In this document: positions 1 to 39,000 of the stretch, one piece after another
Layout: each line of letters opens with the position of its first letter
Numbering within the stretch: position 1 is the stretch's first letter
DNA from: Candidatus Omnitrophota bacterium
GTDB lineage: Bacteria > Omnitrophota > Gorgyraeia > Gygaellales > Profunditerraquicolaceae
Assembly (NCBI GenBank): GCA_041309145.1
Contig: JBFZAG010000152.1
Location: 1 to 54,923 of the forward strand
DNA: 54,923 nt
Reading direction: 5' to 3'
Notes under the pieces: model-generated
Told to the model about the DNA's origin: nothing
Seen by the model: the letters and a program-made list of their open reading frames with translations, nothing else
The model's database searches: none
Translations under genes and position numbers: made by a program

Positions 1-2
1 GA

Positions 3-15000: not shown

Positions 15001-18000
15001 AATGCACCAGGGGCGAGATGCAGTTCAATGATTATATCCACGGGCGGATCAATGGTTTGCTTGACGGCGGGTCAGCCGTGCTGGACGAACAAACCGCCCG
15101 GCAATATATCGACGCGGGTTGGAAGTTCGATTTCAAGAGAACTCTTCGCGCTGCCTACAAGCGGGAATGGAAGAAAACACTCCAGACAAAAGCAAAAAAT
15201 ATTGTTGCCAAGACTTTGATCGGAAACAACTGGTTTAATCGCGAGAGTAAGGAGTTCATCTCTTATGTTATCCATCCCGACAAAGATATGGCCGATAGGC
15301 TTTACGATACGGCAAGAAGTTTTAAGTCCCTGATGCCCGAAATAAGCTTAGACAAGCTGGGCGACGCCACTTTCGATAATATTCCGGCTATGTCAGCCTG
15401 GTATCAGGCCCCCAGTACTTACCACATCACGGTTTTTGCGATAAGAGGGACGATCGCCGAGGATAAGGCCAATGTTTTATATCAAAAGGTCGCCGCTAAA
15501 AAGAGTGATTTGACTGCAGCGCTTGCGGGTATACCGTCTTTCACAGTGTTCGTTGAAGGGTTGATGCTGACCGACAACGGGACCCTCTTAGCCAAAGGCA
15601 TTGTCACCAACGGCAATCTTTTCAAAATTAAGAGAGTGCTTAAACAGTTCAGCGCGCCCATTGATCCGGCTTTCGCCGCTCAGCCGACTCTGCCTTTTGT
15701 CCATATGAGCCTGGCTCGGATAGTCGGCAAAATTGATCCTAAAAAGTTCAAAAATCTTAAGTCCAAGATTAAGGGTAGAAAGTATACGGAGTTCGGCCGG
15801 TTTAGCGTCGACTCAATTCGATTCGCCCATTCAGATGTTTATCTAAAATGGGCAGACAGCGACTACACCATGTTTAAGCTCAAGGACGGCGGCGAAAAAA
15901 CGTTAGCTGAAAGAATAAAGGATAACGAGGCAATATTGAACAGGCGTTTCTTCGGATTGACTGAGACAGTTGTGCTCAAGATAGACGAACTGGGTAAAAA
16001 GGAGGCAAATAATCCTCAACAAATGGCAACTCTTGAGGAAATTCTCAGCGGAATAGAAGAAGTTAAGGAAAGCTTGTTTAAGGACGATATGGAACAGCGC
16101 CTAGAAGCGTTACGACGGCTCAAAGATATGGGTAAAAAGTCTGTTTTGGAGCATTCCGGGGCTGAAGAGATGCTTGATTTTGTCGATTTTCATGTTCACA
16201 CTTTCTTTAGCGACGGATTATATTCGCCCGCCTTTATAGTTTATCTTGCCTGGAAAAAAGGACTGAAAGCGATCGGAGTGGTCGACCATAATACTGCCCG
16301 CCATTTCGAGGAAGCTGTCAAAGCAGCGCAGATACTCGGGGGCATCACGGTTATTCCCGGTATAGAAATGGATATTTCCACCAAGCCGAATGACGGTAAG
16401 AACTTCCTGGAGTTCGTCCACATTATTGCTTATTTTCCTTACGGCTCAGGCATCATAGGAAGAAGTGATGAAAAAGAATTTCTTGACTGGCTAGAAGGAT
16501 TCAGGGGGAGCGATTTCTGGAAGGCGGCGGAACTGCGCAGGCGGATGAACAATAAGAAGCAGGAAATGATCCGCCAGCGGTTGAATGGGAGCATATATTA
16601 CAAAGATTTGAAGCCTGTCGCATTGTCGGATATTTTTCGGCATTCTCCAGACCACGCGAGCTGGTTCCAACTGGCTGGGCTGCTCTCTGAAAATGAAACG
16701 TACAAAAGCGGGCTCTTTTCGAATGTCCCGCAGAATATGGTAAGGGAATATTTAGTTAGGGATTTAACGAAAGCGGAAGAGAAAAAGAAAGATGCAGCTA
16801 AGAGAAAATCCGCAGATCAGATAAAGGAAGAGGCGGAAAAGATTTCCGCTGAGATTGTCGCTGGAAAATTCGAACCGAAACATGTCCGCGGATTCTATTT
16901 CGAAGAAAATAAGTTTGGCAAAGAGGAGCTGCGCAGACCCGCTGATTTCTGGAAGAAAGGAGGGTTCGGGCTTGATCTTGGAGAATTTTGTGCGCTTGTG
17001 AATAAATGGAATGCCCTAGCTGTCTTAGCCCATCCCATAGAAGACAGGAATTATTGGGAAGGCAAAAAACGTGATTATAAGGAAGCGACAACCGCGAAAA
17101 AGGTAGAGATGCTCAAAGAGGTGTTGCAAACAATAATCGCCAGCTATCCTGAATTCGCGCATACGCTTAAAGGCGTGGAAATATACAGTTCTAAATTCCC
17201 GGCCCGGTCCGACATGAATGTTTTTGAAGCGCTTATCAAAGATATTTTCGGAGAGAGCATTATCTTCATTCTTGGCAGCGACAGCCACTATAACAATAAT
17301 GAGCCTGATGAAAAAGGCGTCGAAATGGCCACCGGCAAGGGCGGCAATCTAAAAGAGATAAATAAAGAGCTGGCCCCGGGACTGTTCGAGAGCTTCATGA
17401 AAGTGTCCGGAGATCTTATGAATAAGGATGGGGGGCAAAAGATAGAGATTGATAAAAACGTCTGGCTTGATGTGGAAAAAAATGAGCTTGTGATAAGGAG
17501 ACGTCTTCGCGATCCGTGGATAAATTATTTTGGTATTTTTCCCAATCAGCTGTTTGGGAAGATCACCCATACCGCCGCAGGCACAACGTGGTTCAAAGAG
17601 GCTCTAAAGAATCGTCTGACCAGAGAAATCATTTTAGGGAGCGCCAAGGATTCTATCGGAAGATGGCTTTATATTCGCGATAATGAAACCGGAAAGTTTT
17701 TCTCCCCGACTATAAGGCCGACTACGGGCATAACGCTTGATTTCTATGAGTGCCGACACGGTTTGGGTTATACCATAATTACAGGAGAATATCTGGATCT
17801 CCGTTGCACGATAACGTATTTTATCCCTAAGAAAAAAGGAATCAAGGGGAATATTGAAGTGCAATCAGTTATTATTGAGGATTTAAGCGGCAGGAAAAGA
17901 GATCTATCTGTTTTCTCTTACCGGGAATTTGTTAATGATTCCGCCTTAGAAGAAATTACCCAAATCCAGAACACCGCTTATATTACTGATGAGTTTGTTC

Positions 18001-21000
18001 AAAAAGGGAATAAGATCATTTGGTGCTTAACCGGCAGAACTCGGAATAATCCTAATAAGCCTTTATATTTCTTCGCTTCGACTGAAAAAGCGGTCGGATT
18101 TGACACTAATCTAGTCACATTTACGGGAGAAGATTCTGATTTGCACAATCCGGAAGCAGTTAAAAACGGAAAATGTAAGAATTCTGTCGCTGATACGGAT
18201 TCTGTTGTAGGCGTTTTACAGGTAAACCTTGAGTTGGAAGGAAAAGATAAGAAATCGCTCGCCTTCATTCTAGGAGCAATAGAACAAAAGATTGATCAAG
18301 ATAAGGTCGATAATATCAAACCTGATAAATTGACACAGTCACTGGCAAGTTCATTGCTTAACGATTGGCGGAAAAATACGGAAAATAAGACCGCCCAGGA
18401 AATAAATGCCATAAAAGACCATTTTAACGATAAATTATCGGTTTTTAAGTGCCGGTTGCCGAAAAGCGAAATCGCCATGGAGCACATGATCAATGTCTGG
18501 GATGCTTATGATGTCTTGATCAATCATCTATTTTCCCGTTCCATCGCGGATTATGCCTCCGGCCTGAGCCGGCCTAATATGGGGACCAGAGATTCTGCGC
18601 AGGATATTTACGGACTGGTCCAATTAGACCCGAAAAAAGCCCGTAAGAGGATCCTGGATCTATTCAAGTATGCTCAGCTGGAAAAGGGCAATTGTTTCCA
18701 TCAGTTTAATGTCATAGATAAAAAGGGTGAAGGGGAAACTGACTTTTCCGATGATCATCTCTGGATCATATTGGCGGTAGTAGTTTATATAAAAGAAACC
18801 GGCGACTTCGGAATTTTAGATAAAGAGATCGGTTATGCCGATAACAAGAATAAAAAAGAAACCGTTTATAAGCACATGTTCAGGGCAATTGAGTACACGA
18901 TGGGGAACTGCGATCCCGAAACAGGCTTACCCTGGATGCTCAGGGCTGATTGGTGCGACGCTTTTAATCCTCTTTACAAAGGGCATCTGGCCGCGGCCTA
19001 TAGAAAGAAAGTCGGTAAGCTTGAGAAGAAAGGTTATACGCGCGACGAAGCGGTCAAGATCGTAATGAAGGATTCCAAGGCTACCTCTGCCATGGTCGCA
19101 ATGATGCTGGTTTTCATGGCCAAAGAATTAAGAGAAATAGCGGACAGGTCTAATAAGCGGTCCGGAAAAAAATATTTAGATAATGTTATCAGCAAAATGA
19201 GCCAGAATATAAACAAGCGCGCCTGGTTCAAAAACGGGGCGGACGAAGGTTGGTATGCCATGGGCACAGATTTTAACGGAGAATTTTTCGGAACTCCTGC
19301 CAAAGATGAAGTCAATATCTGGCTACTGCCGCAAGTCTGGGCATTGCTTTCCGGAGTTGCAGATAAGAAGCAGGCTAGAAAAATAATTAAATCTGTGGAC
19401 CGATATCTTTTTGGAAAAAATTACGGGTTGCTTTTGTTCAGCCCGGCGTACAAAACTAAATGCCCCGAAGGTTTTAATATTACTTATTACCCTGCTGGAA
19501 TGAAAGAGAACGCGGCAAACTTCTGCCATGCTAACGCCATGGCGATCGCAGCTTTTGCGCTAAAGACGGATGAAGGCGACATGGTTTATAAATGGTATAA
19601 AGCGTTATTGCCTCCAGAAGCCTGTAAGAAGCTGGGGGTGAATAGATATTTAGCTCCTCCGAATACGCATGCCCAGTTACGTACCGGGCCCGAATACAAG
19701 ATCAGCGGAATGACAAAAGGCTCGAGGCTTACTGGAACTGCCAGTTGGAGCTATTGGGGGGAATGCCAGTATATTTTAGGAATAAGGCCGGAATACGATG
19801 GTTTAGTGATCGATCCCTGTTTGCCGTCGAAATGGGATTTAAGTAAAAAACCAGTAATAATATTAAGAAAATTCCGAGAAGTTACCTATGAGATATCGAT
19901 AAAGAAAGACAAAGGCGTAACCAAGGGGGTGAAATCAATTCTTGTCGATAATAGAAAAATTTCCGGCAAGAAGATCACTTTCCAGAATGGCAAAAAGAAT
20001 GTCAAAGTCTCAGTAATTATGGGCAGAGACGGCGGTGAAAAGATCGATACCGCTTTTGAAAAAGGATTTTTTATTTTAATTGCAGGGAAAGCGGTTTCAA
20101 AAGAATTGGCTGACCGGAAAGGTAGCAATGATGTGGGCGCGCTGGTCGGCGGGAATATGGTTATCAGGGAAGGAATTCATGTAGAGGTCGCTGACAAGAA
20201 GAAAGACGGGGGAAAGAATTGGGTTGCGATCGATACGCTGAATCAGAATAAGCTCGATGAATCTTCCCTTAAAAATAACCCCGCGTTGTTTGTTTATGGC
20301 CCAACCATGGTTGCGGGATGTCCGTTCAATAAAGAAAAGGGAGGCGAAGAGTTCCTGGATACCGCGCAAAGTATTACGAAAGCATTAAAGGATATTTTCG
20401 GCGACCAGGTGTCTGTGTACGAGACTAACCATATGCATTGCACGATAGGAGCCATCAGGGGGGGAGATTACAAAAATCCCGGCAAAATTCTTACCTCGCT
20501 TGATCCGGCGGATATTGATTCGATGCAAAAAGTGTTGGAATCGGGCAGTTTTTTTAAGATCAAGCTTGAAAGCGTTATCATTGCTTCACAGGGCGAGATC
20601 CTGATATTAGGTCAGGGTTTTGATCCGGGTTCGTCTTCCGTTATGTCGGAAATACGGGTCGGGCTGTCTGAAAAGGCGCATTTCGATATACGGTCGCATA
20701 ACCGCGGAAACCGGGCGCATGTTGCAATAGGATATTTTAAGGCAATGCCGCGGCAGGCTGATCTGGAATTGTTCAAAAGCCGGGTTGAAGCCATGCTTTC
20801 CGGGCGCGCAGCCGGCAAAGACTGGTTTGCCGAAGTTGAAGTTACCCGTTTCCTGCTGGCGCATTATGCTCATCGGAGCCTTAACCGGATCGCCGCAAGC
20901 GTTGAATTCAAGCTGGGCGCTCGATCATCCCATAATGCAAATGATATTCATCAGATCTTGATCGAAAAAGCCGAAGGATCGCCTTTAGATACGACAGGAG

Positions 21001-24000
21001 CGCTACGGGAATGGCTGGAAGAAAAAATCAGGCTCGAGAACAAGACCGGGCAGGAGCGGATTTTCCGGCTGGAGCAGCTTGTTTCCGTCATCCGCAAACA
21101 GGGGTTGGTAGACGAAGATGATGCTCGGAAACTTTTATCGATGACCGGAGCTGACGGCGGTATTTCCGGTCGCGCGAAGGGATCTATTCTAATATCTGAA
21201 GCCGCTGCCAGGATAGCTTCTTTGTGCGCTACCGGCGCCTCGGAGAAGATCTTTGTAGCATTCCCGTTCAACGAGCGGGAAGATAACAGGAGCGACTTGG
21301 AAATCAGGGTGCCTGTTGCGTGCACGGAGGCAGACCGGCTCCTGATCGCGGAGTTTATTCTGGCGCGAGTCCTGAATGTTATGCTCGTTAACGCCGGCCC
21401 CGAAGCAGTCATTTCCGCGCCGGACGGCTGGCAGAAAATTCTTGCCGCTACCCGGGATAGGTCGTTCTATTTCCGGAAAGCCGGGAAAAGCCTGGCCGGG
21501 TATTATGGAACTTTCTCTTTGAGGATCGAGGGCTTCGACAAAGCCCCGAAAATAGAGGCGATCAAGCATTCAGCGGCAGGGTTTTCGCTGCTTCACGGCG
21601 GATCAAGCGGAGTCTTCCTGGGGTTTGATTTTGGCGGCACCGGCATTAAAATGGCTTTCTTGGCCCAGGGCCAAGAGAAATATATAGGGAAGATCACCCC
21701 CGGGGTTTACTCGTTCAAGGACGCCGATGATTATGTCGGTTTTATCCGGAAAGCTTTTGAAGAGGGAAAGCAGGCTTTACAGATTCAGGCGAAGACCGGA
21801 AAAGTTGACGGGATCGGCGTTTCCTGGAATACGTCAACCCGGGGCGATGAGCCGGTATTGGGAGGTAAACAGGCCGACAAATTAAAGACAGGCCGTAATA
21901 ACGGTCCGTTCGATCTCGGGATGACCATACGCGCGATCGCCGAAGAAGTTTTCGGGAAAGATGTCCAGGTCACCATCCGCAACGACGGTGATTGCGGGGC
22001 GGCGCAGGCTGTATTTGCGGCCGGAAAGATCAACAATGTGACTTATTTAGGTCTTGGGTCGGGAGTGGCATTCGGCCAGATCGATGAAGCGGGGCGGACT
22101 GCGCGCGGATACGGGGAAGCGCATTTTGCCCGGATAGTTCTCGGCGAAGATCAGGTCGCGGAATTTGGGACGCCGGGAGCGCTTTCTTATTATGTCGGAC
22201 AGGCCGGATTTGTGCGGATCGCTCAGGAGCTCGGCCTTATTCCTGCCAACACGCTGACTTTCGAGCAGATGTCCTCGGAGGTGTTCAAGGTTATTTCTTT
22301 GGCAAACAGCGGTAATGCCGATGCCATGGAGCTTGCAAAGATCATGGGGGGTTATCTCGGGGAAGGGATCTTGGAGCTTAGCCGGGCATGGCCCGTAGAA
22401 ACGGTGGTCGTTGGCGGCGGGTTGACAACGGGCGAGTTTGGACTGACCATGACCCGCGCAGCCCAGGCAAGCATCTTTAAGGACGATCCGGCGTCTCCGC
22501 TCAGGGTGATCCGCTATCCCGAGGAATCTTCCGGGGTCAGCTCGCTCGGCGCAGCCAGGGTTGCCCAGGCGCGGTATTATCATCTTCGCCAGCGCAGCAA
22601 GCTGAAAGAGGCTCTCGCGCGGGAATACGACGCGTATCTGTTCGATGTCGATGCGACTGTAACTTTGAAGAACGACCTGTTTTCTCCGCAGATAATCGAG
22701 ATGCTTGTTAGTCTCGCGGCGGCCGGGAAATATGTGGTATTGTGTTCCGGCCGGCCTTTCGTTGCCAACGAGGAAGAGCGGAATGAGGGTAAACACGATA
22801 TGAAGGAAGTTTTTGATGCGCTTACCCGCGTTGCCCTTACCCGCGGGGCGTTGGCTGAAATACTTCCGCGGATCTTTTTTGTCTGCGGCAACGGTACGTA
22901 CGTGGTGCGGGCAACGGATCTTTCATCCAGGGAATGGATGCGCGGCGAGCCGATCTTTACGCTTGAACAGCAGCAAGAGATCTATGACGCGCTGAAAGCG
23001 TCTCCGAAAGGCGGCAAGGTGCGCCTGATCGAACACGGCCAGGAAAAGATAATGTTCGCCATTAAATTGCATAAGGATTGTTCTAAAGAAGAGCGCGCCG
23101 CTCTTCGGGCCGCTCTTGAGGAGATCGCCGGACAATATTTTCCCGGCCGCTTCCATATATTGGAGAGCAGGTATACCTTTGACATCGTCGCGAAAGACGC
23201 GGACAAATACATGGCCATCGAATACCTGGCAACCGCGCTGGGGATCCCCGAGCACCGCATCGCCGCAGTAGGCGATTCCGGGACAACGGAAGGGAATGAT
23301 TTCCGGATAACTAACCGCCGGGGAGGGTTTAGCGTGCTTCGATCAGCGGGAACCGACGAGCAGGTGAGCGTGCCTTCCGCTACGGGGTTGGTTTTTGCGT
23401 CTGCCACCGAGTTTGTGCTGAAGGGTTTTCTTTTGAAGGCGCAGCAGCAGGCAAATGAGCGGAAATTAATGGAGGCGCTCCTGCGTTTCGCGAATACGGC
23501 TGCCGGTAAGGATCAGCAGAAGAATGTTGAAGGCGAATCAGTCTTGTGGGAGCTTGAGAAAAATGATTTTATCGCGCTTCTCGGCAGTTTCGTTCTCAGG
23601 GAGAAAGCAGAAATCAATCTCAGAATACGCGACGGGCCGAACGGCATGGCTTTATCCCGCGTTATCAGCCGCCTCAATAAGTTCGCTGTTTCCGCCGCTT
23701 TTCAATATTATCTGCGCTGGCATAACCGCCCGGATCTGGAATGGAAAGCAGGGCTTTTTGTCTACGGCAGCAATTCCAAAGGTTGGGCGGTCAACGGCTC
23801 TGATTTTGATTTCGCACTAGTTACTGACGAAGATATGTTAATTTCGGAACGCGATGAATTGTATCATTTCCTCAGAGATATTATCGCTTGCTTAGGTTTC
23901 GGCAAGGTTTCTCCTGCCATACAGACTTTCCCATTCTCCGGATTAGCCGGCACGCTTTCAAGTAAAATGGACCATAACCGTTTCAACGAATTGATGCTGT

Positions 24001-27000
24001 TCGCCGGTTCTCCCGAACTCGCGCTTAAAGTTGACGCGGCTAAACAGTCTTTGTTCCGCGATCTGGCAGAGCAATTCGCATTTAATAGCCTGGCAGTGAA
24101 TGAGAAAATGACGCGGCATATCAAAAAGAGCCCGGGGGCTTTGAGAGATATCAGCCGCTTGATCTGGCTGGGGCAGATTTATTTATTGATCACCAAAGGC
24201 AGGTTTGTCCAGGATCCGTTGGTTTCATCAGAGATCTTCAGTCTGGCTGAACGGGAGCGGATTTCGAACGCCCTCGATTTTCTCCTGGAAGTCCGCGATG
24301 AGCTGGATCGCGCTTCTTTGTCCCGCGGCATTCTTGATGATCAGGCCTGCGAGCATTTAGCCGGAAATTCGCCGTGGGCCAGCTCGCCCAAGGAAATCAA
24401 AGACAGGTTCATAATACATACAAACGACATCAGGGCGATCAAAGAACGGATAATAAAAACAATTATTGAGGCTCTTCCGGCAGAGGTCAAATCCGGTTTT
24501 AATTGCCTTTTTGACGCTCAGGGAATATTTAATCATAATCTATCTGTTCAGGAATACCTGGAATATGCCGGAGGTTCGACAGCGCTGAGATACGCTATTG
24601 CTCTTCATTGCATCCATGAGGAAGTCCTTGGCTTTCTTTCTCAGGGGGCCAACTGGTCTGTCCGCCACGCCTTGGCTCAGAATCCCCGCGCGACCCCGAA
24701 AATTCTCTCCAGCCTGGCGCTCGACAGATCTTATGAGGAACGCGACGTCAGGCTCATGGTTGCCAGGAACAGCCGGACGCCCATGAAGACCATTACCCGT
24801 CTTTTGAACGATAACGCGGAAGTGGTCAGAAAAGAGGCTGCCAAGAGCCTGGAAAACAGGCTGATGAGCGGATTATCAAAAGAAGAGAAATTAGTCATGC
24901 TCCTTTTTCCCAACACCCCGAAACCTTTGGATCTGCCCGAGCATCGCAGGGTCAGGGAAAAATTCGGGGAAGACTTGTGCCAGGTCTGCGAGCGGGAGAT
25001 GCAGACATTCGACGATGTCCTGCGCCATATCAATTCGATCATCGATCATCTGGAACTTCCCTTGCTGTTTACGATCAACCAGGAAGGCGGCCGCCTGAAT
25101 GAGTTCAACACTCATCATACCCTTACTGCCGGGAATATGGGTTTGGCCGCGATCAGTGATCTTGAAGAAGCGAAAAGGTATACCTATCTTGCCGCGTCAA
25201 TCATTGCCGGAGAGCTTCGGGCATCGGGAGTAGCGTGGAATTTCGCGCCGGACGCTGATCTCATTGCGGCTTATAGAAACAGGGACGTCGGGACTCGTTC
25301 GTTCGGCAGCGATCCCGTTCGCACCTCAGCTCTTACCGCAGAATACGTAAGAGGAATGCAGGATAACGGGGTTATAGCTACCGCGAAACATTTTCCCACT
25401 TATGGCAGGATCGAAACCGACGCCCATGCCGGTTTATGCACTATTTCTTCGGACCCGTTGGACCTCGAGCCTTACAAGGCGGCAATACAGGCCGGAGTTG
25501 AATCTATCATGCTCGGCCACGTAATCGTGAAAAATTGGGATGCCCAGCGCCCGGTCAGCGTTTCCCCGGAAGCCATTCGAATGATCAGGGAGGATCTCGG
25601 ATTCGCGGGAACAATCGTCACCGACGGTTTGAGCATGGGAGCTTTAGAGGAATATTATAAACAAAAGGGGAGCGATTCAACCCAGGCCGCGGTCGACGCT
25701 TTCGCTGCGGGCGCCGATATTCTTCTTTATGTCCAGGATTTTACCCATAAGAGGACAAAAGAAGAGCAGGCTCAGGGAGACGACCGCAAGATGGCGGATT
25801 TCAGAAGGATCCGCGATGCGGTCAGAGCGGCAGCTGCGAAGTTCAGCGAAGAAAGGATAAATGCGTCATTCCGCCGGCTTATCAGCCTTATGATCCGCTA
25901 TGGGATATCGGAACCGCTTTTGCCTGAGAACCGAAAGTTACTGAAAACTCCGGAATCCGCTCTTGTTATGGAACGGATCGCCGAACTTTCCGCGACGCTG
26001 GTAAAAAATGATTATTCTGTCCTGCCGTTGGATCCCGGAACAGGCCGGATCCTGGTAGTGAGCATTATTCCCGGGATGACCGCGCTCACCGATAAGACCT
26101 GGTATACCCCCTGTTCTTTGTTCCCGTTCATCCGGGAGTTTGAACCGAATGCCCGCGATCTGCCGGTCAATTTGCTCTATGATAAGGAAACTAAAACATC
26201 CCCCGATATCAAGGCCGAACTCGAAAAAGTCTTGCGGGCTGCCGAGGAAGCGGACATTATCATCGTCCAGACCTATAATGCCTATCTTCCGGACGTGATC
26301 ACGGGATCCCGCGACCAGCTTGAGATCGTCAACGCCTTGTTGCGGCAATACGCAGGGCAGAAGAAGGTGGTTGTGGTATCCACCGGCGCTCCGTACGATG
26401 TTATGGAGTTCCCCGGGGTTGCCGCGTTTCTCGCGGTTTACAGCCCTTCGCCGGTATCGCTGGCCGCCGCAGGGAAAGCGATCTATGGTCGGATACAGCC
26501 TTCAGGCCGTCTGCCGGTAGCCATTCCGGGGTTATTTCCGCTGGGAAGCGGCTTGACTTACTGGCAGTATGAAAGTTTGCGCGATCATATCTTGGAAAAA
26601 TACGGAGTTGATCCTTGTTTCCTTAATATTCCCCAGGCTTACGGATCGCATGCCGAAGGGCCCATGCTTGACGATCATCTCAGGTTGATGCTGCGCAGGC
26701 TGGAATCGCTTGTCAACGGCAGCGACGCGGGCGTGCCCGAAGGATGGCAGAGGGCGGCTATTCGCAACCAGAATCTGTTGAAAGATTATATTTTCCTTCA
26801 TGACTCGGCAAAAGCCCAGGTTATAAAAATATTCATTAATGACCAGGAGAAAAAGCGCGCGGAATATGAATCCGCAGACAACGATGTAAGAAAAGATCCG
26901 GCGCGCACGCGCATTACCTTCTCCGGCCACGAAGAGCTCGCTTACAGGATGGTTAACGGCCGGGTTTCTGAGCTCCTGGCTCAGATGATCAAGCTGCACG

Positions 27001-30000
27001 GGCTCAACGACGTCTTCCGCAAAGCTCACGGCAATGTCGCGCTTCTGCGCCAGGCTTATGATAATGTCTACGCCGCGCTCAAGGGAGACCGGGATAATAT
27101 TGACCTGGCGTTTATCGCCATGTATCTTGATACGGCCAGCAGTTTAAAAGTCCGCGAGGCAGGCCAGGCGCCTTTCAGCGAAGAAAAAGAATTTTTGAAA
27201 GGTTACAGTGCCGGGAAAGCGGCATTTAGAGAGTCATTTATACTGGATTCATTGGAAGATCAACTGCCGGAAAGCCCTTCTAAGAATACTTTATTCGAAC
27301 AGCGTTTCTTTGCCCGGCGGGTTCACGATCTTTATGCTCCGTTCGCCGCAACTCTCGGGCTGACGGCGCTAGCCTTCAGGCTGCAGAAGCGCGCGGCTCT
27401 GTATATCGGGGAATCCAGGGGCGCAGGGCTTGATACAGGCGTTTTATTAAGGCAGCTTTCGGATAAAATAACTGCGCTTTTGTTGTTGCCGAGCGAAGAA
27501 CAAATTGAGACGGAAAATGAGATGGCCGAAGTTTTCATCCCTCTGGCAGGCTACATCCAAAGCCAGGGAGCGCGTTACGCCCAACTGGACAAGCAGATGC
27601 GGGAGATCCTCGGCCGATACGAGGCGTTTAAAACGGCGCGCGCAGGTTATGTGCAAAAGACGCAGGAGCTGATCTTCGGATTAGTCGATGTGAAAGCGGC
27701 AAAGGCAGCTTTAGAGCAAAAGCTTTCTCTGGTCGAGACGTTCCGCGGCCGCGAATTGACCGCCGCCCAAAAAGAAATTCTGGCAGAGATAAACTTTGTC
27801 TATATCCCGCTGGCTTATCGCCTTGGTTTCGATTCTCTGGCTTCGAAACTGCGCAACAGCTGTTTTACCCTCACTTCACCCGTTTTATCAAAGGCCATTG
27901 AAGATGCCTTCGCTGAATATTATATCGAACCTCAAGGAATTTGCGCCAGCGTAAGTTTTAATATCAAACAAGCTCTTGAGGGAGCCGCGATTTCCAGATT
28001 TGACAGCAGAATAAAAGAAGCCCTCAGTATTTACCTGCGGCTGAACAAAAAATACGGAATACCTTTGGACCCGGAAGAAATAAAGGACTACAACAAGTGT
28101 TACGCGTATGTTCTCGGGTTGCTCCAAAATGGCGCTGAGATCGCCAATGATTATATCGGCCTGAGGATCCTGAAACAGGGGATCAAGATAGACGATATCT
28201 GCGCGAAAGTAGAAGCAGCGGGGTTCCCGCTTAAAGAAAAACGCGAGACTCTCCAGAACGGCATTATCCGGGCAAACTGTTTCTTCCGCCTTCCGGAAAT
28301 TTATCCGCTCGATCCGTCAATGCCGTATTCGAAACGGTACTTTGAACTTCAAATATACGAAGAATCGACTTTCGTTTTCTCGAAGGCCGAATACGGCGAA
28401 TATAAATTGCGCGGCCATTCGCCGCAGGGCTCGGTTTTCAGCGAAGATCAGCTAAGCGCTTTGCGCGCGTGCACAACTGAGGAAGAGCTCGAAGCCCAGC
28501 TGTTCGAAATAATTAAAAAGAACCACGGAAAAGACGGCGGGGAAAAGATCAATATTGTTTTCAGCATGGGCGGGACGAAGTTGGCTATCGCGGCTGTAGA
28601 CCGGATGGCGAATATTCATTATTTGTCGGAACTGAAGTGGCAGGAAAAGTTCGGAAAGCCGGTTAAGACGGTTTCAGCGCATAAAGTCGAAGATGTGATG
28701 ATCCAGGAGATCTTACAGCTTGTTCATTCCTTGCCGCTTAACCCGCGCCAGATAGGAAAAGCAGGTATTGCTTTTGCCGGACCGGTGGATATGGAACAAG
28801 GAATAGTCGGTACGCCTTTTGCCGCTCCGAATCTGCCGTTCGACCATTATCCTCTCAAGAAAAATCTGGAATTCCTTTTGAGGAGGGAATTGAGAAGAAA
28901 GATCAACGTGCAGATCACAAACGATTGCATTTCCGCTTTATTGGGTGAGCTTTCCCCGAAAGGGGCGTTGTATAAAAGCGGAACGGGCATGGTATTTATT
29001 ATCGGCACCGGAGTAAACGGAGCCGCGGCTAAGAACGGAAAAGTACACTTAGGAAATTTCAATGAGATCCAGGAGCTGGGCCATAATATTGTTTTGACTT
29101 CCGAAGAAAAATACATTTATACCGGGTTTGCCACCAAAGGCAGGCATCCTCTAGATGAGAATGGCCAGCCGGTCCGGAATGATCTCGATGAGCTGCTTTC
29201 CGGCCGCGGCCTGGAACGCAGATTAAAGGCTCAAGGTTATTCTCATCTGGAGATCACCGAAAAAGCCATTAAGGGCGACAAGAAAGCGATCGAGCTTATT
29301 CAGGCTTACGCCAGCGATCTGGGCCTGGCGCTGGCCGCGTTCATCCATGCTTATCTCAACGAAGATTTCGTGCGGAAGATAGTCTTGGTATCTTCGGTGG
29401 GAGAAAAGTTCGCTAAAGGGTTAAAAGATGAATCCGGGAAAGACCTTTTTATTTTAACTGTCAGGAAAGCGGTTTCAACCGAATTGGCCAGCCGGGGAGT
29501 GGAAAAACTAAAAGCGGACAGATTAGCCAGAGGCATCAGGCGTTCCCGGCTGGATTATAAAAGGGAATTGATAGCTTTCAGCCAGGACGGCGGCAAGAAA
29601 TTCGGGGCGCTGGTCGGCGGGAATATGGTTGTCAAAGAAGGCGTTCATGTTGAGGTCGCAGAGAAGAAGAAAGACGGCGGTGATATAGCTAAGACCGAGG
29701 TTAAACTTTCTCCTCATGAGGCGACAGAAATACTGCGCAAACACATTGCGGAAACTGTATTGCCAGGGCTGGACTTCGAGTCTTCCTACAGATTTTACAA
29801 GTTTTTGCTGAACGCGCTTTTGAACCAAAAGAATATTTATTTTATCGCCGCGGGCAGGAGCGGCCAGGCCGGCACTATTTTCGAGATCCTCACCGATATT
29901 ATGCAGTATGCTTTCCAGGAGCTTAACGAAGAGCGCCTGACCAAGTCAATTTACCGGATCGACACAGAAGATGATTATCCTCCGGTCAGAAAAGGGGATC

Positions 30001-33000
30001 TGGTGATCGTGATCAGCGGCTCCGGATCGACCCCGTCAGTCAATTTGTATGCCCAGGACGCCAAAGGGCAAAAGGCGGATATCGTAGCGATTACCGCCAA
30101 GCCCCAGGCGGAGATCTGGCAAAAATTAAACCCCAAAGCCGTCATAGAAATAAAAGGGGTGACAAAAGCTGACAGTCAGGCCGCCTCGGTCGAGCTTAAA
30201 GAAGAAATCGAGCGTTTTAATAAGGCCGCTCCGATGGGCACCAGTTTTGAGCTTCCGGCCGCGCTATATTTATTGAGCATGGTGGAATGTTTGGGCACCA
30301 AGATCAAAACAGCGGATAAGTTAGAATTTATCATTCGCGGTTATTTCGCAAAGCTGCTGGACAGCCTTCAAGGGGAAGCTTTCAAGGAGTGCTGTTCGGA
30401 AGACAAGATCGCCCAGGCGGTCAGTTTGATCAACGAAGTAAAGAACAGGAACAAGGATAAGATCAACAAAGCCCTGGATGTCCTGGAAAAGGCCAGGTTC
30501 GCAGGAGCTTATTCCCGAAAAGAATTTGACCTGGCGATCACCTCTTTAAAAGAAGTCAGGGACAGCCACCCGGCGAAAGTGTATATTTCCGGGGACGGGA
30601 TCAGCCATAAGATAGCGCTTATGTTCATGACCCGTTTGCGCCATCTCGGCGTTGCCGTGGAAGTGGCCGGAGCCCGCCATGTCCAGACGGAATTGCGCAA
30701 GGACGATGTGGCGATCATTATCGGCGCCTATACCAGGGAAGACAGATTCCGGCACGTGCTGGAAACCGCTTTGGCAGTAGGAGCCAAGACGATCATTATT
30801 GCCGGCAAATACGATCCGGAATTAGAAGCCAAAGTCAATGTCGCCTTCTTTGTTAACGGGACCAGGCGCATTCCTCCGGGGCTAGATTTCGCTCAGGTAA
30901 TGGTCCGGGGAATGAAAAAGCCGTTCAAGCCCAGCACCATGCTGTTCTGGGCTAAGGCATTGATATTGACCGATGTATTTATCTCGCAAATGGGCAAAGT
31001 CGAGAGCCACGTCCAGTGGCCGCTGGAATACCCGGCTTTGACTTCATTCAAGCCCTATGCCAGAAGAACACTGCCCAATGCTCAGCAGTATAAGGCTATA
31101 ATTGAAGATCTGGGTGGTAGCAGTAATTTGGCTGATCTGGGAATTGATTTATGTCGTTTGAATATATTCATGAGCCCGGGTTTGCAGGCTATATCCGGAG
31201 TGGCACGGGGAGAATTGACTTTATTCGTTAATCCCAATATTTGCCGGGCTCCTCCGGAGCAGAGGAAAGTCATCCTGCGCCACGAACTCTTCCATTTGCT
31301 TGATCCCGAAAAATCCGAAGCCGAGATCCAAGAATTCACCATCGCTTATCTTATCGAACACAATCTTTTAGCCAGCCATATTGATTTCCTGAAAAATTCC
31401 GGCTGGCTGGTTGTTGACGAAGCCTGGCTGGTCCGGCTTGAAACCGCATTGGCCCGCGACGGCGGCGATGCCGAGCGCGAGCGGCCGCTGGAATCAAAGC
31501 AGGCGCAATTGTTTGAGCTGGCCCAGGAAATAATCGGACCGGGCTATACCAAAGTCGTTATTCAGGGTAAAGCGGGAAAGATCCTGAATGCGATAATAAC
31601 GCTGGTCAATATCCTTATTCTTTCCGCTGAAATATATGTCAGCGCATTTATCATCTCGTTTCTGGCCGGAACGGTATTCGGGCCGTCTTTTGCCTTCTTT
31701 GACTTTTTTGTTTCCGGGATAGCCGCCCTGGCGATCGCCTCATTCGTTGTTTTAGCCGGGTCAGTGAAAAAAATAGCCCGGCCGCCGTTTCTGGTCATCT
31801 CCTGGCCGTTTTACGCTACCTTCGACGCCCAAAGCATAAAACAAAGGATCATTGAAGCCGGCAGAAATGCTCCGGTGTCTGTTCAGAAAAATCTTTTCAT
31901 ACAATTATGGATGCCGACCAAGAAGATCGGAAAGATCGAAAAGCGCGGAAGATTGCTGGAGGACTTTGAGTTTACAAATATTATTTCCGGAGAGACGGCC
32001 ATAGTCCTGATAGTCGACCGGTCCCGCCCGGCAGAAGACAGCAATATTCTTTCCCAGTTCATCTCATTAGAGCAAATACTCGCTGATCTTTCCAGGGAAA
32101 AAAGAAAAAACGATCCGGTAACGGAGCCAGGTTCAAAGGACGGCGGAGCAGAAGTGGTCGCGGTCAAGCCAGCGGATGATGTCTGGCAAAAATACCGGAT
32201 TTTTGATTTTACTCCGGAAAAGGCCGAAGAGGATTTCCGGGGTATTAAAAATCTGATCGCCGGAAAGATCATGGATAAGGCCCTGGCTAAAGTCTATCCG
32301 GATGTGTCAGCTGGCCAGGCCGAGAAGATCATCATCGAATTCGCTCTCCATGTCGGCGCGGCCGCTTACTATAAAGTTACCTATAAAACAGGATCGTGGG
32401 AAAGAACCTTGTTCGCGGGGGTAAAGTCTTACCATGACTTTAACAGCAGGCAACTTTTAACCTGCAGCGAAAAAGGGATCAGGTATTATCAGGAGATACT
32501 GCGGGATCTGGGAATGGTCAATTCCATTATTCCGGCTTTCTGCGCCCGGCCGGGGATCGCCGCGGCAATTTCCGGTTATGAGCAAATGAGCGGGCTGGGA
32601 GTTCTCGGAGATGAAATGGAGATCGTTCGTCCGGTAATGAGCGTTGAGTTCTTGAGCGGAGATGACGGTATTTCCGCGTTCAAGGCCAGAACACAAGCTT
32701 ACCAACAGTTGACTCCGGAAGCCGAACAAGCTGTAAAGCTGGCGATGAAGCCGTATATTGTTTTATTCGCCGAATCTTACAATACCAAAACCGGGCTGGT
32801 TTGCGCGGATATGTCTTTGATCAATATTATTTTTACCCAAGATGGCCCGAAGATCGGAGACATTTCCGATGTTGACCCCGGACAGCCCCGGTTATCGAGA
32901 ATTAACCTGGAGGAATTTAAAAATAAGCTGAAAGGCTTCCATGGCCTGGAGAGAAGAGCGAGCATCAAGAGCCTGATCGAAAAAAACGAAATAAGCCAGG

Positions 33001-36000
33001 ACTTGTTCTCCATATCCGATAAATTGATCGATGAGGCTTTAGAAGAAGCGCTGGCTCAGCGCCCGGATTTAAAAGATAAATTAGGGCTGAAAGATCCTAA
33101 AAAAGACGGCGGTCAAATAGGCGCGAGCGCTAAATCTAGAAACAGCCTGGGCGCTTTGGTAGCCATGATATTAAGGGGATACGGGGTGGGTAGACCTACC
33201 GTGGCAGGTGGTCCCACCCCCTCCTTAAGCTCTCAGAAAGACGGGGGGAAAGAAAAGGCAAAGAAAACAATTGCTGTTGCCGCTCAAGAAAAGGATCTGC
33301 GCGAGCAGCATATCGCGGACCAAAGGAAAATGCGCCGGCGGGACCTTGCCGAGATCATCTTATGCCCGATAGGAATAACCGCTATTTTACTGGTGACCCT
33401 CGGCAAAAGCATAGGGTATGTTCCGGCGTTTTTAGTAGCGCTGGCCTATGTGGGATCTGTTTTTGCCAGAGCGGCAGTGACCGACGAGATCCACTGGTAC
33501 AGCCAGGAATTGGGAAAATGGAACCTCAAGATAATCGATTGGCCAAAACTCGGGCAATTCTTATACAACAACTTAGAGGGGCTGTTTATCTTTACTTTGA
33601 TCAACGGCTTAATTTTGTGGACTTGCCTGGACTACGCCCACCTGGCCAACGACTTCACCATCTGGGCGATCCAATTGCCGGCCAACGTGATCTTAGGCGC
33701 TTTTTACTCAAAGTTCAACCGCATCCGGCAAGGTTTCGGCAAAGAAGCTCAGTCAAATGAAGTGTTCAAAGACGTGACCTTGAACATCGGATCGGCGTTC
33801 TTTATGCAGATATTTTACAATTACCTTTTTACCTTTTTACCGATGGATACTCAAGGGGTAAACGGTATATACCAGGTTATCCGCAAGGCTATCAGCCAAA
33901 CCTGGAGCATGACCATCGATTACCGTTATCCGAAGCTGGTGATCAGGAGAAAACTCGGCAACATCAAACTCTATATTCCTTTTAACTATAAAGAGTTCCA
34001 TAATGCCGTAGAAACTCCCGGAGGGATCGTGATCAAGACCAAAGTGATCAACGCTTCCCGCCTGGCTAAAGATCTGGCTGACGATATGCTAGTCGGGATG
34101 GGCTCTTTGGTGGAGCGGATGAAAAAGGAGTATAAAGGCAAAGATCTGTCAAAAGACGCGGATCTTGACGCTATGCTGGCCGAGATCCGCAGGTCGTTCT
34201 TGCAAAGCAAAAAGGCCAAAGACGGACAGCCGCCCCTTATGGTAAGCACCGCTAATATCGACGGGCTGATGAAATTCCGGGAGAAATTAGCTAATCAATT
34301 TGTCAAGCAGGGGATCCCGCTTAAGATCAATACGATCAGCGAAAAAGCTCTTGTCCGCAAGCTTGATGTCGACAGGGAAGAAGACCGGCCGGAGGAGATC
34401 AACCGGTTTATAAAGGAACATCTGACGGTCTATGAAAGAATAGGACGCGCCAAAACAGACCAGGTTTACCGGACCCGCCTGGCCATGGCTTCTTTGTTCG
34501 GAGGAAAGAAAAACCGCCGGGCAGAGTGGTGGCAGCAAAACCTGGGCGCAGAAGACGTGGCTGAAGAGGAAGTCTTATTGCTGGCGGTTGATCGGTCGAG
34601 ATTGCCCGCCCAGGTGCAGGAAGAATTAAAAGACAAAAATGTCATCGTTGACCGGGTAGCCGGAGCGATAATTTTATTGACCACCGGAAAAGATAAGTCA
34701 TTGTTCGACCTTACCTATGAAGCGAGCATGGCGATCTTCTGGCTGCTGGGTTTTAATTCCCCGACCATAGCTTATCTTAAGGAAAAAGACCCGGAAACTT
34801 TCGGAAAAGAATTTATAACTTACATCCAGGCCTGCCATAAGCCGGTGAACATCGAACTTTTCGGCTGGAGCCATCGCGAGATCCTGGAAGGGATATTAGC
34901 CCAAAAGACCATGGATTTCATGGCCAGGATCGGAGAGACCGAAAGTATCGCCTACAAGAAATTCATCACTTCTTTTTCCGAGCTGGGAGCTATCCCGGTC
35001 ATAATCGACCGGTTGGATTTTCCCTTCCGGAAGCTGAGCCGCTTATATTTTGTCCGGCGCTACCTGGAAGAAACCGGGCTTAAGATCACCGCCGAAGAGC
35101 TGATCCAGCGGAACGCCACCGAGCTATATTCCGATTTCTGGAGCGCATTGTTTGATCACGATCTAGAGATGGCCGAAAGAAACAGCAACGGTTTCTGGAA
35201 GAAGTTAAAAGCCAGGCTGAATTTATCTTCTCAAAAAAGCGACACAGACAACAAAGCCGCTTTACCTAAGATCAGAAGCATCGGTTCCGGCATTGCCCTG
35301 ATTTGCTCAACCTTCCGTGGCTGGTGGTGGGCAAATTACCTAAGGGCAGCCGGAACCGTAAATTTTAAAACGAGTGGCGACCAGCCGCAACAAGACGGCG
35401 GCCGGATCATCCCGATCATCGTGAAAAGCGATGTGGTTAAAATGGGGATTTACAAGGTGTTGGAGGCTCTTCCCGGAAAGAAGCTGACCCGCTTGGAGAT
35501 CGAAAAAGCCACCGGCCTTAAGACCGGAGTGGTCAAAAAGGAATTGCGGAGATTGCGCAAGGCTGGGATCGTGGCGCAGGATAAAAAAGGTAGGGATTTT
35601 CAATACGGTCTGAGCAAATCAGCCAGGGGAAAAGACCGCATAGAGCTGCTTCAAAAGAAAGGTTTTATTGTCCTGGAAGATGACCTAAGGGAAATAGTCC
35701 GGGAGTTTAAGGCCGAAAAAGGGGGAAAGATCTCCAGGGCGGAAGTTGCCCGGATGCTCAGAGATGAGAATAAGATCAACAGAAACAGAAGGTCGATCGG
35801 CCGCTTATTCGCGGATGTATTCCTGGAGGATGAGATTTCCGTCCAGGAGATCCGGGAGGAGTATCTTAAAGCTAAAAGTTATTCCAAGACGGCTCAGGCC
35901 TTCAAGGAGAAAGGTAAAATAATCGACAGGAACACTATCTCGCGGATAATCAACGAAAAGAACCTCGGATCCAGGTCAGCCTATCATCGCCAAACCGCTC

Positions 36001-39000
36001 TTGCGGATTTAGACCGCGGCTTGGTCCAGGGAATGGGCAAGCCGTTTAGCGCCGCCAATATCTTGAACCGGGAACAGAAAACCGTTACCCGCAATTCCAA
36101 TATCTGGAAAGGGCTAAAGGAGCTTGGGGCATTTTTAGATCAATATCCTTTGAGCCCGGAAGAAAGGATCGCGGCCAGGAGATTGCTTTTGCAGGCCGCG
36201 GATTCCCGGGAGTTTATTATTGACAGCCGGTTCGCTGAAGATAAGACTCTGGGGAGCCTGGAAAATGCCGGCCTTCTTGAGCCGATCAGCCGGAGCCAGT
36301 ATATATTGGCGGAAAAAGTCGAAGAGTTTCTCTTTACCCGCAAGATCATTGATGCCAGGCGCGAATCCGCCAAAGTCTATCTGGCATTTTTACTGAAAGC
36401 TGAGGGAAAGAATGCCAGGGAAATCGCTGCGGCTCAGGAAGCGCCGATCAAACGGGTAACCAATAATTATTTCCTGATTTTGGCCAAAGCCGGGCTGATC
36501 GAGCATAAGAAGCCAGGTTTTTACAAAGTCACTCTTGAAGGGCAAAGGTTAATAGCGGATAAAATATTTGTCAGCGCTCAAAACAAAAACATGTTCGCTC
36601 AGGCTAAAGCCAGGAATCTGGATGCGCTGAAGCTTTTAAGAGTGCTGGCGCTGCTCGCAGAGAAAGTGGCAATAGCCAATATCGCTCAAAAGCTGGGCAT
36701 GGAACAGTCTGCGCTAAAAAAAGAATATCTGCGCTTCTTGGACAGGGAAGCCGGCCTGATCATGTTGTCCAGGTATCAGGATAACCAGGGGGGGTGGCGC
36801 GAAGAGTATAAGGTGTCAGGCCGGGGAAAGAGGCTGGCAGACAGCATTGATCCCAAGTTAAAGCAAAGTATTCTGGGTTGGTTGGCCAAGGCTGATCAGG
36901 ATGGCGGGATAAAGATCATCGGTTTGGCCGGCATTGTGGGAAGCGGGAAAACCGAGGTCGCTGCCAGGCTGACGGAATTGCTGGGCGATGAGGCGGAAAT
37001 AATCGAGATGGATAAGGTGGGAGATCAAGCCCGGGAAGACAGGAAATACGATATTGCCGGAGCATTCGGCCGGGGAGTGATCAGCGGCTCGGGAAAAGAA
37101 GTGGATAAGGAAATGTTGAGGATGCTGATCTTAGGAGACCTAAAACAGATCAAGATCCTCAATAAGATCCTTTTTTCGCGGATGGAAGAGATCGCCATGA
37201 CGCGTATCGAAGAGGCGCGGTCAGAGCAAAAGAAGTTCGTAGTCATCGAAGCGGCGGTATTGCCGAATTTGAAGAGCTTGTATTCCTTATGCGATGAAGT
37301 CTGGCTGGTTGAAGCGCAAGATTCATTAAGGCGTCAGAGGTTATTGAAAAGAGGAAAAAGTTTGGATTGGATCTTAAAGTTCGAAGGCTTGCAGAAAGAC
37401 GCCTTAGAAGAATTAAACCGGAAACCCGGCATACGCCATATCAACAATAACGGCACCACCGCCGATCTAAAACTGGCTGTTTTCAAGGCTCTGGCCGAGT
37501 TTAAGAGTAAAGACGGCGGAATGATCCGGCCGGTTGCGCTGATAATCCTGGACGGCTGGGGATATAAAGAAGATGGTTCCGATAACGCGATCTTTCGGGC
37601 CAGAAAGCCGACCTGGGATAAATTGATCGCCAAACACCCGTATACTTTCCTGGAATCGTCGGGATTAGCCGTAGGTTTGCCGGACGCGGAAATGGGCAAT
37701 TCCGAAGTCGGCCATTTGAATATCGGCGCCGGAAGAGTGGTTAAACAGGGAGTGGTGCGGATCAACGAAGATATTTCCAGAGGCACATTCTTTGCTAATC
37801 CCGCTTTGAAGGCTGCCAGCGAATTTCTTAAGGCCCATCCGGATAACAGCATCCACTTTATGGGGCTGATCTCCAACGCGGTAGTCCATTCCGATATCAA
37901 GCATTTGCATGCCTTATTGGAATTCGCCAAACGGGAAGCAATTACCAACGCATATATTCACGCTTTGACTGACGGACGGGATTCCCCGGCTCAAAGCGGA
38001 GCGACCTGGATGGCTAACCTTAAGGAAAAGATTAAAGAGGAAGGCAATGGCGAGTTTGCTTCGGTAGTCGGCAGATATTACGCCATGGACAGGGACAACC
38101 GCTGGGACAGGGTAAAGCTGGCCTACGAATTGTTCACCGAAGGCCAGGGTAATCCGGCTAAGGATGCTTTAGCCGCAATAGAAAATTCATACCGGGAAGG
38201 GCTGACTGACGAATTTATCAAGCCTATCGTTATCACTAGAGATGATGATAAGCCGGTGTCAACGATCAAGAATAATGACGTGGTTGTATTTTTCAATTTC
38301 CGGGCTGACCGGGCCAGGGAGATCACCCGGGCATTCATGGAAGACGATTTCGCGGGTTTTAAGCGTAACCTAAGACCCAATGTCAAATGGCTGTGCATGA
38401 CCGAATACGATAAAGAATTTTATAAGTTTAATGATCTCTCGGTAATCTTCGGCCCGGAATACGTCAAAAATAATTTAGGCGAATATATATCAGCACAGGG
38501 TTTAAAACAGCTGCATATAGCGGAAACCGAGAAATTCGCCCACGTGACCTTCTTCTTTAACGGCGGAAGGGAAAAACCGTTCGAGAACGAAGACCGGATA
38601 TTGATCCCTTCCCCTAAAGAGGTGGCTACGTATGATCTAAAACCGGAAATGTCCGCTTATTTGGTTACAGAGCAATTACTCAAAAGAATACAAAGCGAAG
38701 TCGATGATTTTATCGTTTTGAATTACGCTAATCCGGATATGGTCGGCCATACCGGGAAAATGGTTCCGACCATTCGGGCCATAGAGGTGGTCGACGAATG
38801 CCTGGGCAAGGTCCTGGCAGAACTGGCAAAACATAACGGGATCGCCCTGATCATGGCTGACCACGGAAATGCCGAAGAGATGGCCGGAGAGCATCAGACA
38901 TCCCATACCCTTAACCCTGTTTTCTTTATGCTGGTAGACTCCGCGAACAGATTAGGCAAGATCAAGTTGCGCGAAAAAGGGGCTTTGTGCGATGTCGCTC

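Follow-up and report, generated by a model that had tools for sequence, protein, structure and literature searches.

A repeated peptide in a giant reading frame

We analysed a 54,923-nucleotide stretch of an Omnitrophota genome (contig JBFZAG010000152.1; hereafter the window, meaning this stretch at its full length), which is occupied by one giant open reading frame (ORF), and within it a short peptide that occurs three times. Restricted to this lineage and about 29 residues long, the peptide forms a mini-module that has the Asp-Gly-Gly (DGG) junction motif of the ORF as its ends and that has spread by segmental duplication. Frame 3 of the plus strand contains 18,307 codons with no stop and is open at both window ends, against 465-1,091 stops in each of the remaining five frames. 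Since the frame runs off both ends, the window ORF is an internal piece of a still larger Omnitrophota multi-enzyme giant gene. Its nearest relatives are fragments of metagenome-assembled genomes (MAGs) of Omnitrophota/Omnitrophica; no others turned up. The ORF and the three copies of the peptide (A, B and C) lie at the following positions.

3..54923, plus strand: giant multi-enzyme ORF, recognised from the stop-free frame 3, the tiling of Pfam matches and the Omnitrophota relatives
2811..2906, plus strand: copy A, comprising the decayed junction DGD (2811-2819), KDA and the core GALVGGNMAVKEGIHVEAADKKR-DGG (2829-2906)
20118..20213, plus strand: copy B, comprising the decayed junction KGS (20118-20126), NDV and the core GALVGGNMVIREGIHVEVADKKK-DGG (20136-20213)
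29586..29594, plus strand: upstream junction of copy C, (Q)DGG, GACGGCGGC, with DGG at residue 9862, the end of a ROK module
29595..29681, plus strand: copy C, the 29-residue unit KKF-GALVGGNMVVKEGVHVEVAEKKK-DGG, with its core at 29604-29681 and the closing DGG at 29673-29681

The cores, GALVGGNM…KK[KR]DGG, share one common frame and lie exactly where a first-pass annotation, made from the letters alone, had placed them. Among the direct repeats of the window they make up the top family (98 nt, 81-82% nucleotide identity); they recover one another in a windowed self-BLASTP at E = 4e-12 to 7e-11, and are identical at 19 of their 26 residues. The longest nucleotide run common to all three is 22 nt (GCGCTGGTCGGCGGGAATATGG, at 29607-29628 in copy C), not the 23 nt first reported. 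No Cys, Ser, Thr, Tyr or Trp occurs in the core, and the copies are spaced 3,000-6,000 residues apart in the ORF.

Copy C alone among the three is bracketed by DGG on both sides, as had been noticed, in the context SQ-DGG-KKFGALVGGNMVVKEGVHVEVAEKKK-DGG-DIAK. Copy A is preceded by the degenerate KKDGD, also as described before, and the aligned upstream column is DGD (GACGGCGAC), one base from the GACGGCGGC of copy C. The further claim that every GALV stands shortly after a DG[GD] site fails for copy B, where the aligned position is KGS and the nearest DGG lies 36 residues upstream. Copies A and B are the C-terminal ends of longer DGG-to-DGG units, of 76 residues (2670-2906) and 59 residues (20028-20213) respectively.

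Two further GALV tetrapeptides had been proposed as shorter echoes of the peptide. Both are present, at residues 1823 (nucleotide 5469) and 11050 (nucleotide 33150), and neither can be counted as homologous: a profile built from four copies of the peptide (the fourth is described below) scores nothing there beyond the tetrapeptide itself, and the 30 residues after the DGG sites of the echoes align with the peptide no better than random windows do. The tally of GALV is accordingly three homologous copies and two unrelated tetrapeptides, against 0.67 expected. A local hidden Markov model (HMM) search with the four copies found no weak or degenerate extra copy in the window.

A fourth copy in another genome

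The fourth copy lies in a Lac Pavin Omnitrophota MAG (contig JAPLLS010000098.1, here L001), which was the only source of a further copy in the following searches.

Back-translated pattern, GTDB representative genomes: one locus, L001
Exhaustive HMM, 1.84 billion representative proteins: the L001 protein only
Two JGI metagenome scans (protein-pattern and degenerate-DNA): no copy
IMG/VR scan: no copy
Word-indexed protein search with a 44-column alignment: no copy

This rarity carries the caveat that the window ORF's own protein is absent from the searched libraries and that giant ORFs may be under-represented in them. The L001 contig is a single stop-free ORF of 1,396 residues in which the copy reads FLF-DGG-KKT-GALVGGNMVVKAGIHVEVADKKK-DGG-EKQ, again 29 residues with DGG on both sides; outside the peptide it shares no similarity with the 18,307-residue window ORF. 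The doubly bracketed 29-residue form looks ancestral, because the aligned DGD of copy A and KGS of copy B read as decayed DGG codons and because the same form recurs in L001. A profile search of Pfam (using the units, E up to 10), NCBIfam and PDB sequences, together with the exhaustive HMM search, gave no known family for the peptide, in line with the earlier statement that it matches no familiar enzyme fold.

Enzyme modules and their DGG junctions

More than 25 recognisable enzyme domains are tiled along the window ORF in Pfam. They include GT2, DUF218, P-loop kinases, two radical-SAM regions, SPASM, a methyltransferase, PHP and GH94, as well as two ROK domains, HAD, GH3, SIS, CoaE, a complete iPGM, alpha-amylase and two GT5/GT1 pairs of starch-synthase-like character. 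A Kyte-Doolittle scan places 22 hydrophobic, transmembrane-like segments in clusters among these domains.

DGG occurs 39 times in the ORF, where 5.1 occurrences are expected, and at 31 of these sites it directly follows K, R or Q. Its nearest variants are rare (EGG, NGG, DGA and DGS, 1-2 occurrences each), and D precedes 39 of the 104 GG dipeptides. No DGG falls inside a Pfam match, though matches cover 27% of residues (P ~4e-6). Among the families whose profiles begin at the protein N-terminus (cytidylate-kinase-like, ROK, CoaE, iPGM, GT5 and HAD), profile position 1 lies 1-10 residues after a DGG, and in the iPGM module the original Met follows DGG directly. Duplication that runs precisely from DGG to DGG is seen in the paralogous GT5/GT1 modules (47520-49601 vs 49599-51377, ~36% identical) and in a cupin-like pair (2898-3338 vs 13491-13916). 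As read from the sequence, then, DGG marks the borders of whole fused enzyme modules, and as a motif the delimiter that had been named earlier is strongly supported by its abundance. Examples of the motif are given below.

3336, 9417, 28533, 36900, 37512 and 49599, plus strand: junction sites, [KRQ]DGG

The search for an extended general junction signal came to nothing: the 39 junctions have little information content outside positions -1 to +3, and the peptide is therefore not merely an extended junction consensus. DGG also stands at junction-like sites in three other Omnitrophota fragments: L001, a related JGI metagenome contig (L003; Ga0193580_1009579, 1-11180) and a MAG protein (P0002). 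In L003 these sites accompany PGM/PMM, NUDIX, OMP-decarboxylase-like and SIS modules, and the coding region is split into several overlapping ORFs in different frames, a pattern that either true borders between genes or frameshifts introduced by assembly into another giant gene could explain.

Not all domain borders are marked by DGG. The interval 21153-28532 comprises 2,460 residues with ROK, HAD, a GlnD-like nucleotidyltransferase and GH3 N- and C-terminal domains, and contains zero DGG; decay like that seen at copies A and B may have erased some junctions.

Further short DGG-to-DGG units of unrelated sequence occur in the window (45 residues at 33105-33248; 40 residues at 44832-44960) and outside it (23 residues in P0002; 21 residues in L003, 3880-3960), and such short peptides between junctions seem to recur in these giant genes. 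Two pre-junction tails, 33188-33215 and 43637-43664, are 86% identical over 28 nt (…TVAGGPTPSLSSQK-DGG and …TVAGDPVSPPASLNK-DGG), with a protein similarity not above the random-window level.

Independence from neighbouring modules

The modules that adjoin the copies are as follows.

28533..29594, plus strand: ROK-family sugar-kinase module upstream of copy C, DGG to DGG (Pfam ROK, 1.7e-19; NCBIfam ROK/NagK-like)
20061..20117, plus strand: ROK C-terminal remnant upstream of copy B, homologous to 29439-29495 before copy C (repeat family D6, 79% nucleotide identity)
29673..31466, plus strand: SIS (sugar isomerase) module downstream of copy C, starting at DGG, recognised from domain and orthologue matches
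2898..3344, plus strand: cupin-like module downstream of copy A, DGG to DGG, recognised from a self-BLASTP paralogue

The first-pass annotation had allowed that the peptide might turn out to be the conserved C-terminal strand of a known domain such as ROK, and the profile searches reject this candidate. In the module upstream of copy C the ROK profile begins 3 residues after a DGG and the ROK matches stop at residues 9784-9788, ~80 residues before the copy, with the DGG at residue 9862 in between; copy A and the L001 copy have no ROK nearby, and the ROK of copy B is decayed. In this last case ~30 residues before the peptide align with the C-terminal part of copy C's ROK, the other ROK sequence having been deleted. 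Copy B is a decayed duplicate of a ROK-plus-peptide unit in which the peptide alone has been kept, because dN/dS (the ratio of non-synonymous to synonymous divergence) between copies B and C is 0.94 in the ROK remnant and 0.13 in the adjoining peptide.

The modules that follow the peptide all differ, being cupin-like after copy A, 2H-like without a family after copy B, SIS after copy C and unassigned in L001. A paralogue of the cupin-like module lies at 13491-13922 (residue 4497; 44% identity, E = 2e-34), has no peptide in front of it and gives a weak NCBIfam match to cupin_WbuC (33.4 bits, below the cut-off of 42). The SIS orthologue in P0002 likewise starts at DGG and is preceded by a different DGG-bracketed peptide of 23 residues (residues ~271-299), which is not detectable as a diverged homologue of ours, the alignment with the window beginning only at the downstream DGG. 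For the module downstream of copy B the search found no orthologues. In a comparison of all 39 junctions, no upstream sequence near a junction other than the peptide is conserved unless the adjoining modules are paralogous.

The module directly downstream of copy B (20214-21152) and another at 15063-15893, neither with a family match, carry paired H-x-T/S motifs (HCTI…HVAI and HITV…HMSL in 20214-21152 and 15063-15893 respectively) that recall 2H phosphoesterases by eye. None of the modules adjoining the peptide has the look of a protease.

Level of selection

Pairwise Nei-Gojobori estimates over the 26 codons give a synonymous divergence (dS) of 0.43-0.77 and a non-synonymous divergence (dN) of 0.05-0.09, with dN/dS of 0.07-0.21. 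Relative to the consensus there are 16 synonymous changes over 18.7 sites and 8 non-synonymous changes over 59.3 sites, an omega of ~0.16 that departs from neutrality in a binomial test (P = 1.1e-5), and every replacement is conservative (A/V, V/I, K/R, I/V, D/E, E/A). Since the synonymous divergence is this large and the amino-acid changes are few and conservative, the constraint acts on the peptide and not on the nucleotide sequence. The peptide is under purifying selection at the protein level, and its description as a conserved unit holds.

These data also bear on the idea that the repeat is a nucleotide-level element, such as a structured RNA, a ribosome-binding site inside the ORF that goes with the conserved in-frame ATG, or some other cis element of the very long mRNA, with the peptide incidental to it. 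We consider this extremely improbable. The 22-nt run identical in the three window copies would suit it, as would a G-rich GGCGGG 3 nt before the conserved ATG and the identical codons at 10 of 17 invariant residues, where codon usage predicts 2.6. However, none of the five four-fold sites in the core's second half is constant, the copies fold no better than shuffles (z = -0.85, 0.21, -1.18 and 0.67), their consensus fold has no informative covariation, and the window contains no Rfam match; for these reasons we read the excess of identical codons as fitting moderate divergence and not a nucleotide-level signal. In addition, a Shine-Dalgarno site would need more than the 3 nt that separate the G-rich stretch from the ATG, and no plus-strand promoter-like site was found in or near copy C.

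Predicted structure

An AlphaFold2 model of a 32-mer, built from the three-copy alignment, forms a two-strand hairpin with strands at 13-17 and 20-24 (NMVVK and VHVEV) at a low pLDDT of 55.7. The prediction for the peptide, a weak one, is thus a beta-hairpin with a Lys-rich tail after it; since hydrophobic and polar residues alternate in both strands, one face of the hairpin would be hydrophobic. A single-sequence AlphaFold2 model of ROK, peptide and SIS together was uninformative (mean pLDDT 34).

A possible role at processed junctions

We tentatively favour the possibility that the peptide is a separately selected mini-module of ~29 residues, located at DGG junctions, copied by segmental duplication and serving in junction recognition or docking. 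The module has a lead-in rich in Gly (GALVGG), then a hairpin of beta-strands that is probably amphipathic (NMVVK-EG-VHVEV) and finally a tail rich in Lys, with its ends set by [KRQ]DGG, the separator of full-length enzyme modules across the giant ORF. Segmental duplication has carried it to at least three junctions of the gene, with a fourth copy in the giant ORF of another MAG, and copy B derives from a ROK-plus-peptide unit whose ROK part later decayed.

C39 peptidases cut after Gly-Gly, and the DGG junctions may be double-glycine processing sites for which a C39-type cysteine peptidase would be the likely cutter. A protease site at DGG would be consistent with the C39 peptidase domains reported near the N-termini of full-length Omnitrophota giant genes (bioRxiv 10.1101/2023.11.21.568195). 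If the junctions are cut, copy C and the L001 copy would be excised as free basic peptides of ~3 kDa, and copies A and B would be left at the C-terminal ends of fragments of 76 and 59 residues. For cuts after GG the calculated monoisotopic mass of the copy C 29-mer (KKFGALVGGNMVVKEGVHVEVAEKKKDGG) is 3009.64 Da, and the calculated masses of the B and A units are 6226.32 Da and 8162.45 Da. The processing enzyme, or a partner of the modules once they are processed, could then recognise the peptide or dock on it. Recognition or docking is most likely when set against a diffusible product or the core of a ribosomally synthesised and post-translationally modified peptide (RiPP), because copies A and B keep their sequence while the upstream site has decayed. 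Release as a free 29-mer would concern at best one of the three window copies, and is predicted only if DGG is cut.

Several observations weigh against this reading. With two of the three window copies lacking an upstream DGG, release of a free 29-mer is not the conserved feature. Where the canonical double-glycine leader is hydrophobic (-4, -7 and -12; consensus LSxxELxxIxGG), the peptide carries K, D/E and H respectively, and the junctions in general show K, R or Q at -4, followed by D at -3. No peptidase family was found by Pfam in the window at E <= 0.01. The omega of ~0.16 comes from 26 codons and from four known copies that are not independent. Cleavage at DGG is something we infer from sequence, and the docking role purely so. 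Finally, the octamer GACGGCGG encodes 26 of the 39 DGG, against 5.8 +/- 2.2 in synonymous-codon shuffles, with all 26 in frame and none on the reverse strand. Codon use at the 39 sites is skewed towards GAC (33 of 39; background 38%) and, for the first Gly, GGC (27 of 39; background 36%), with the second Gly unbiased; GGC encodes the first Gly of DGG at five of five sites in L001, and the codons are mixed in L003. The junctions may thus have a nucleotide-level or historical component, such as shared origin, recombination at the octamer or a role at the RNA level.

The peptide might instead be a recombination by-product, that is, an in-frame cassette moved or duplicated by illegitimate recombination at GACGGCGG with little or no function. 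Homology that starts and stops at DGG codons, so that the unit resembles an insertion with a 9-nt direct repeat on either side, would fit such a cassette, as would its four unrelated contexts (a second genome included), the retention of the junction word at the nucleotide level and the DGG-to-DGG duplication of other modules. Nevertheless, we find it very doubtful indeed: replacements are conservative only and omega is low next to a neutral remnant before copy B, neither a palindrome nor a stable hairpin is present, the event behind copy B was a larger duplication of ROK plus peptide and not a cassette-only insertion, and only four copies turned up in all collections searched.

A serious rival, although on balance an unlikely one, is an uncleaved inter-module linker in which DGG is a structural turn or cap and the peptide a small hairpin kept as a spacer or contact element. 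The absence of a peptidase family from the window and the misfit of the junctions to the canonical leader consensus both speak for it. So does the 2,460-residue ROK/HAD/nucleotidyltransferase-like/GH3 stretch without DGG, whose enzymes are evidently able to work fused, and published proteomics detected peptides of a giant ORF with processing not reported. On the other hand, a passive linker needs neither 19 invariant residues in 26 nor an omega of ~0.16, and a specific contact with a neighbour is unlikely because the adjoining modules differ in all four contexts. Moreover, a four-residue motif just before natural N-termini, once with the original Met, resembles a processing site.

The first-pass annotation had also suggested, as speculation, a link to peptide maturation, having noticed two radical SAM domains and a methyltransferase in the same ORF. 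These domains are there, along with a SPASM domain, and the peptide might in principle be a released bioactive or regulatory peptide or a RiPP-type core, excised at DGG, with the radical-SAM/SPASM and methyltransferase modules as possible modifying enzymes. The double bracketing of copy C and the L001 copy, a length of 29 residues ending in GG like that of double-glycine-processed peptides, and the strong sequence conservation would all accord with this view. The suggested link nonetheless finds no specific support, and we rate such a product very unlikely. Copies A and B are intact though their upstream site is gone; the core lacks Cys, Ser, Thr, Tyr and Trp, the usual targets of SPASM maturases; and the copies lie too far apart to be arrayed like the cores of a multi-core precursor. 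The radical-SAM/SPASM modules give only generic superfamily matches in NCBIfam (20-70 bits against curated cut-offs of 170-650, e.g. 68.5 vs 380), and the NCBIfam scan of the modules around the peptide named no peptidase or peptide maturase.

A bolder form of the recognition or docking hypothesis would hold that the [KRQ]DGG motifs are real processing sites of a bacterial metabolic-enzyme polyprotein and that the 29-mer, a conserved hairpin, is its first defined spacer, recruiting or timing the protease or tagging fragments, and copied by in-frame recombination at GACGGCGG. In this complete form we regard it as quite unlikely.

These readings address the question of whether giant-gene products of 20,000 to >100,000 residues persist as one chain or as cut pieces, and where they are cut. 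The DGG architecture supplies concrete candidate cut sites, and the 29-mer of 3009.64 Da is the most diagnostic prediction, since it can arise only through cutting at both of the junctions that flank it. Because no other sequence at the window's junctions is conserved irrespective of the neighbouring modules, the peptide is the leading candidate for a cis element of the machinery for processing or assembly. If there is no processing, it becomes a minor lineage-restricted linker motif. The segmentation of giant ORFs by [KRQ]DGG is the larger finding and is apparently unreported; the main value of the peptide is as its sharpest test case.

Comparison with known systems

Giant ORFs of Omnitrophota have been described as an 'Archaeovorin' type (West-Roberts et al. 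2023, bioRxiv 10.1101/2023.11.21.568195) and as the class named 'multi-enzyme metabolic cluster' (2026 preprint, bioRxiv 10.64898/2026.06.07.730766). Like the published giant ORFs, the window ORF is stop-free and far exceeds 20 kb, and like both classes it tiles GT5/GT1, radical SAM, methyltransferase, ROK, HAD and glycoside hydrolase domains with transmembrane-like segments. West-Roberts et al. proposed cleavage and stated that 'information about cleavage points' was lacking (bioRxiv 10.1101/2023.11.21.568195). In contrast to our analysis of the window, neither bioRxiv 10.1101/2023.11.21.568195 nor bioRxiv 10.64898/2026.06.07.730766 mentions the DGG junction motif, cleavage points or the peptide.

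As an in-frame unit of ~90-100 nt in unrelated coding contexts, the repeat resembles Rickettsia palindromic elements, from which it differs in having no palindrome, strong purifying selection on the peptide and only four known copies. Double-glycine leaders cut by C39 peptidases during bacteriocin or RiPP export offer a parallel in length and ending, the peptide falling within their 15-30 residues and closing with Gly-Gly. Unlike those leaders, however, it is internal and not N-terminal, it is followed by an enzyme module of ~600 residues and no core peptide, and it lacks the hydrophobic residues at -4, -7 and -12, the general junction being [KRQ]-D-G-G. Moreover, no C39 domain was found within the window, though the gene extends beyond both of its ends.

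A further comparison is with the spacer and small peptides of viral polyproteins, including SP1 and SP2 of Gag in human immunodeficiency virus (HIV-1), picornavirus 3B/VPg, which is present in three tandem copies in foot-and-mouth disease virus (FMDV), and flavivirus 2K. In the present case the host is bacterial, the modules are metabolic enzymes, the copies lie thousands of residues apart, cleavage is putative and there is no sequence relationship to the viral spacers. The likeness is one of arrangement, with a short conserved peptide standing between two junction motifs (copy C and L001) and more than one copy in the same polyprotein, and it may extend to a possible role in ordering or targeting processing.

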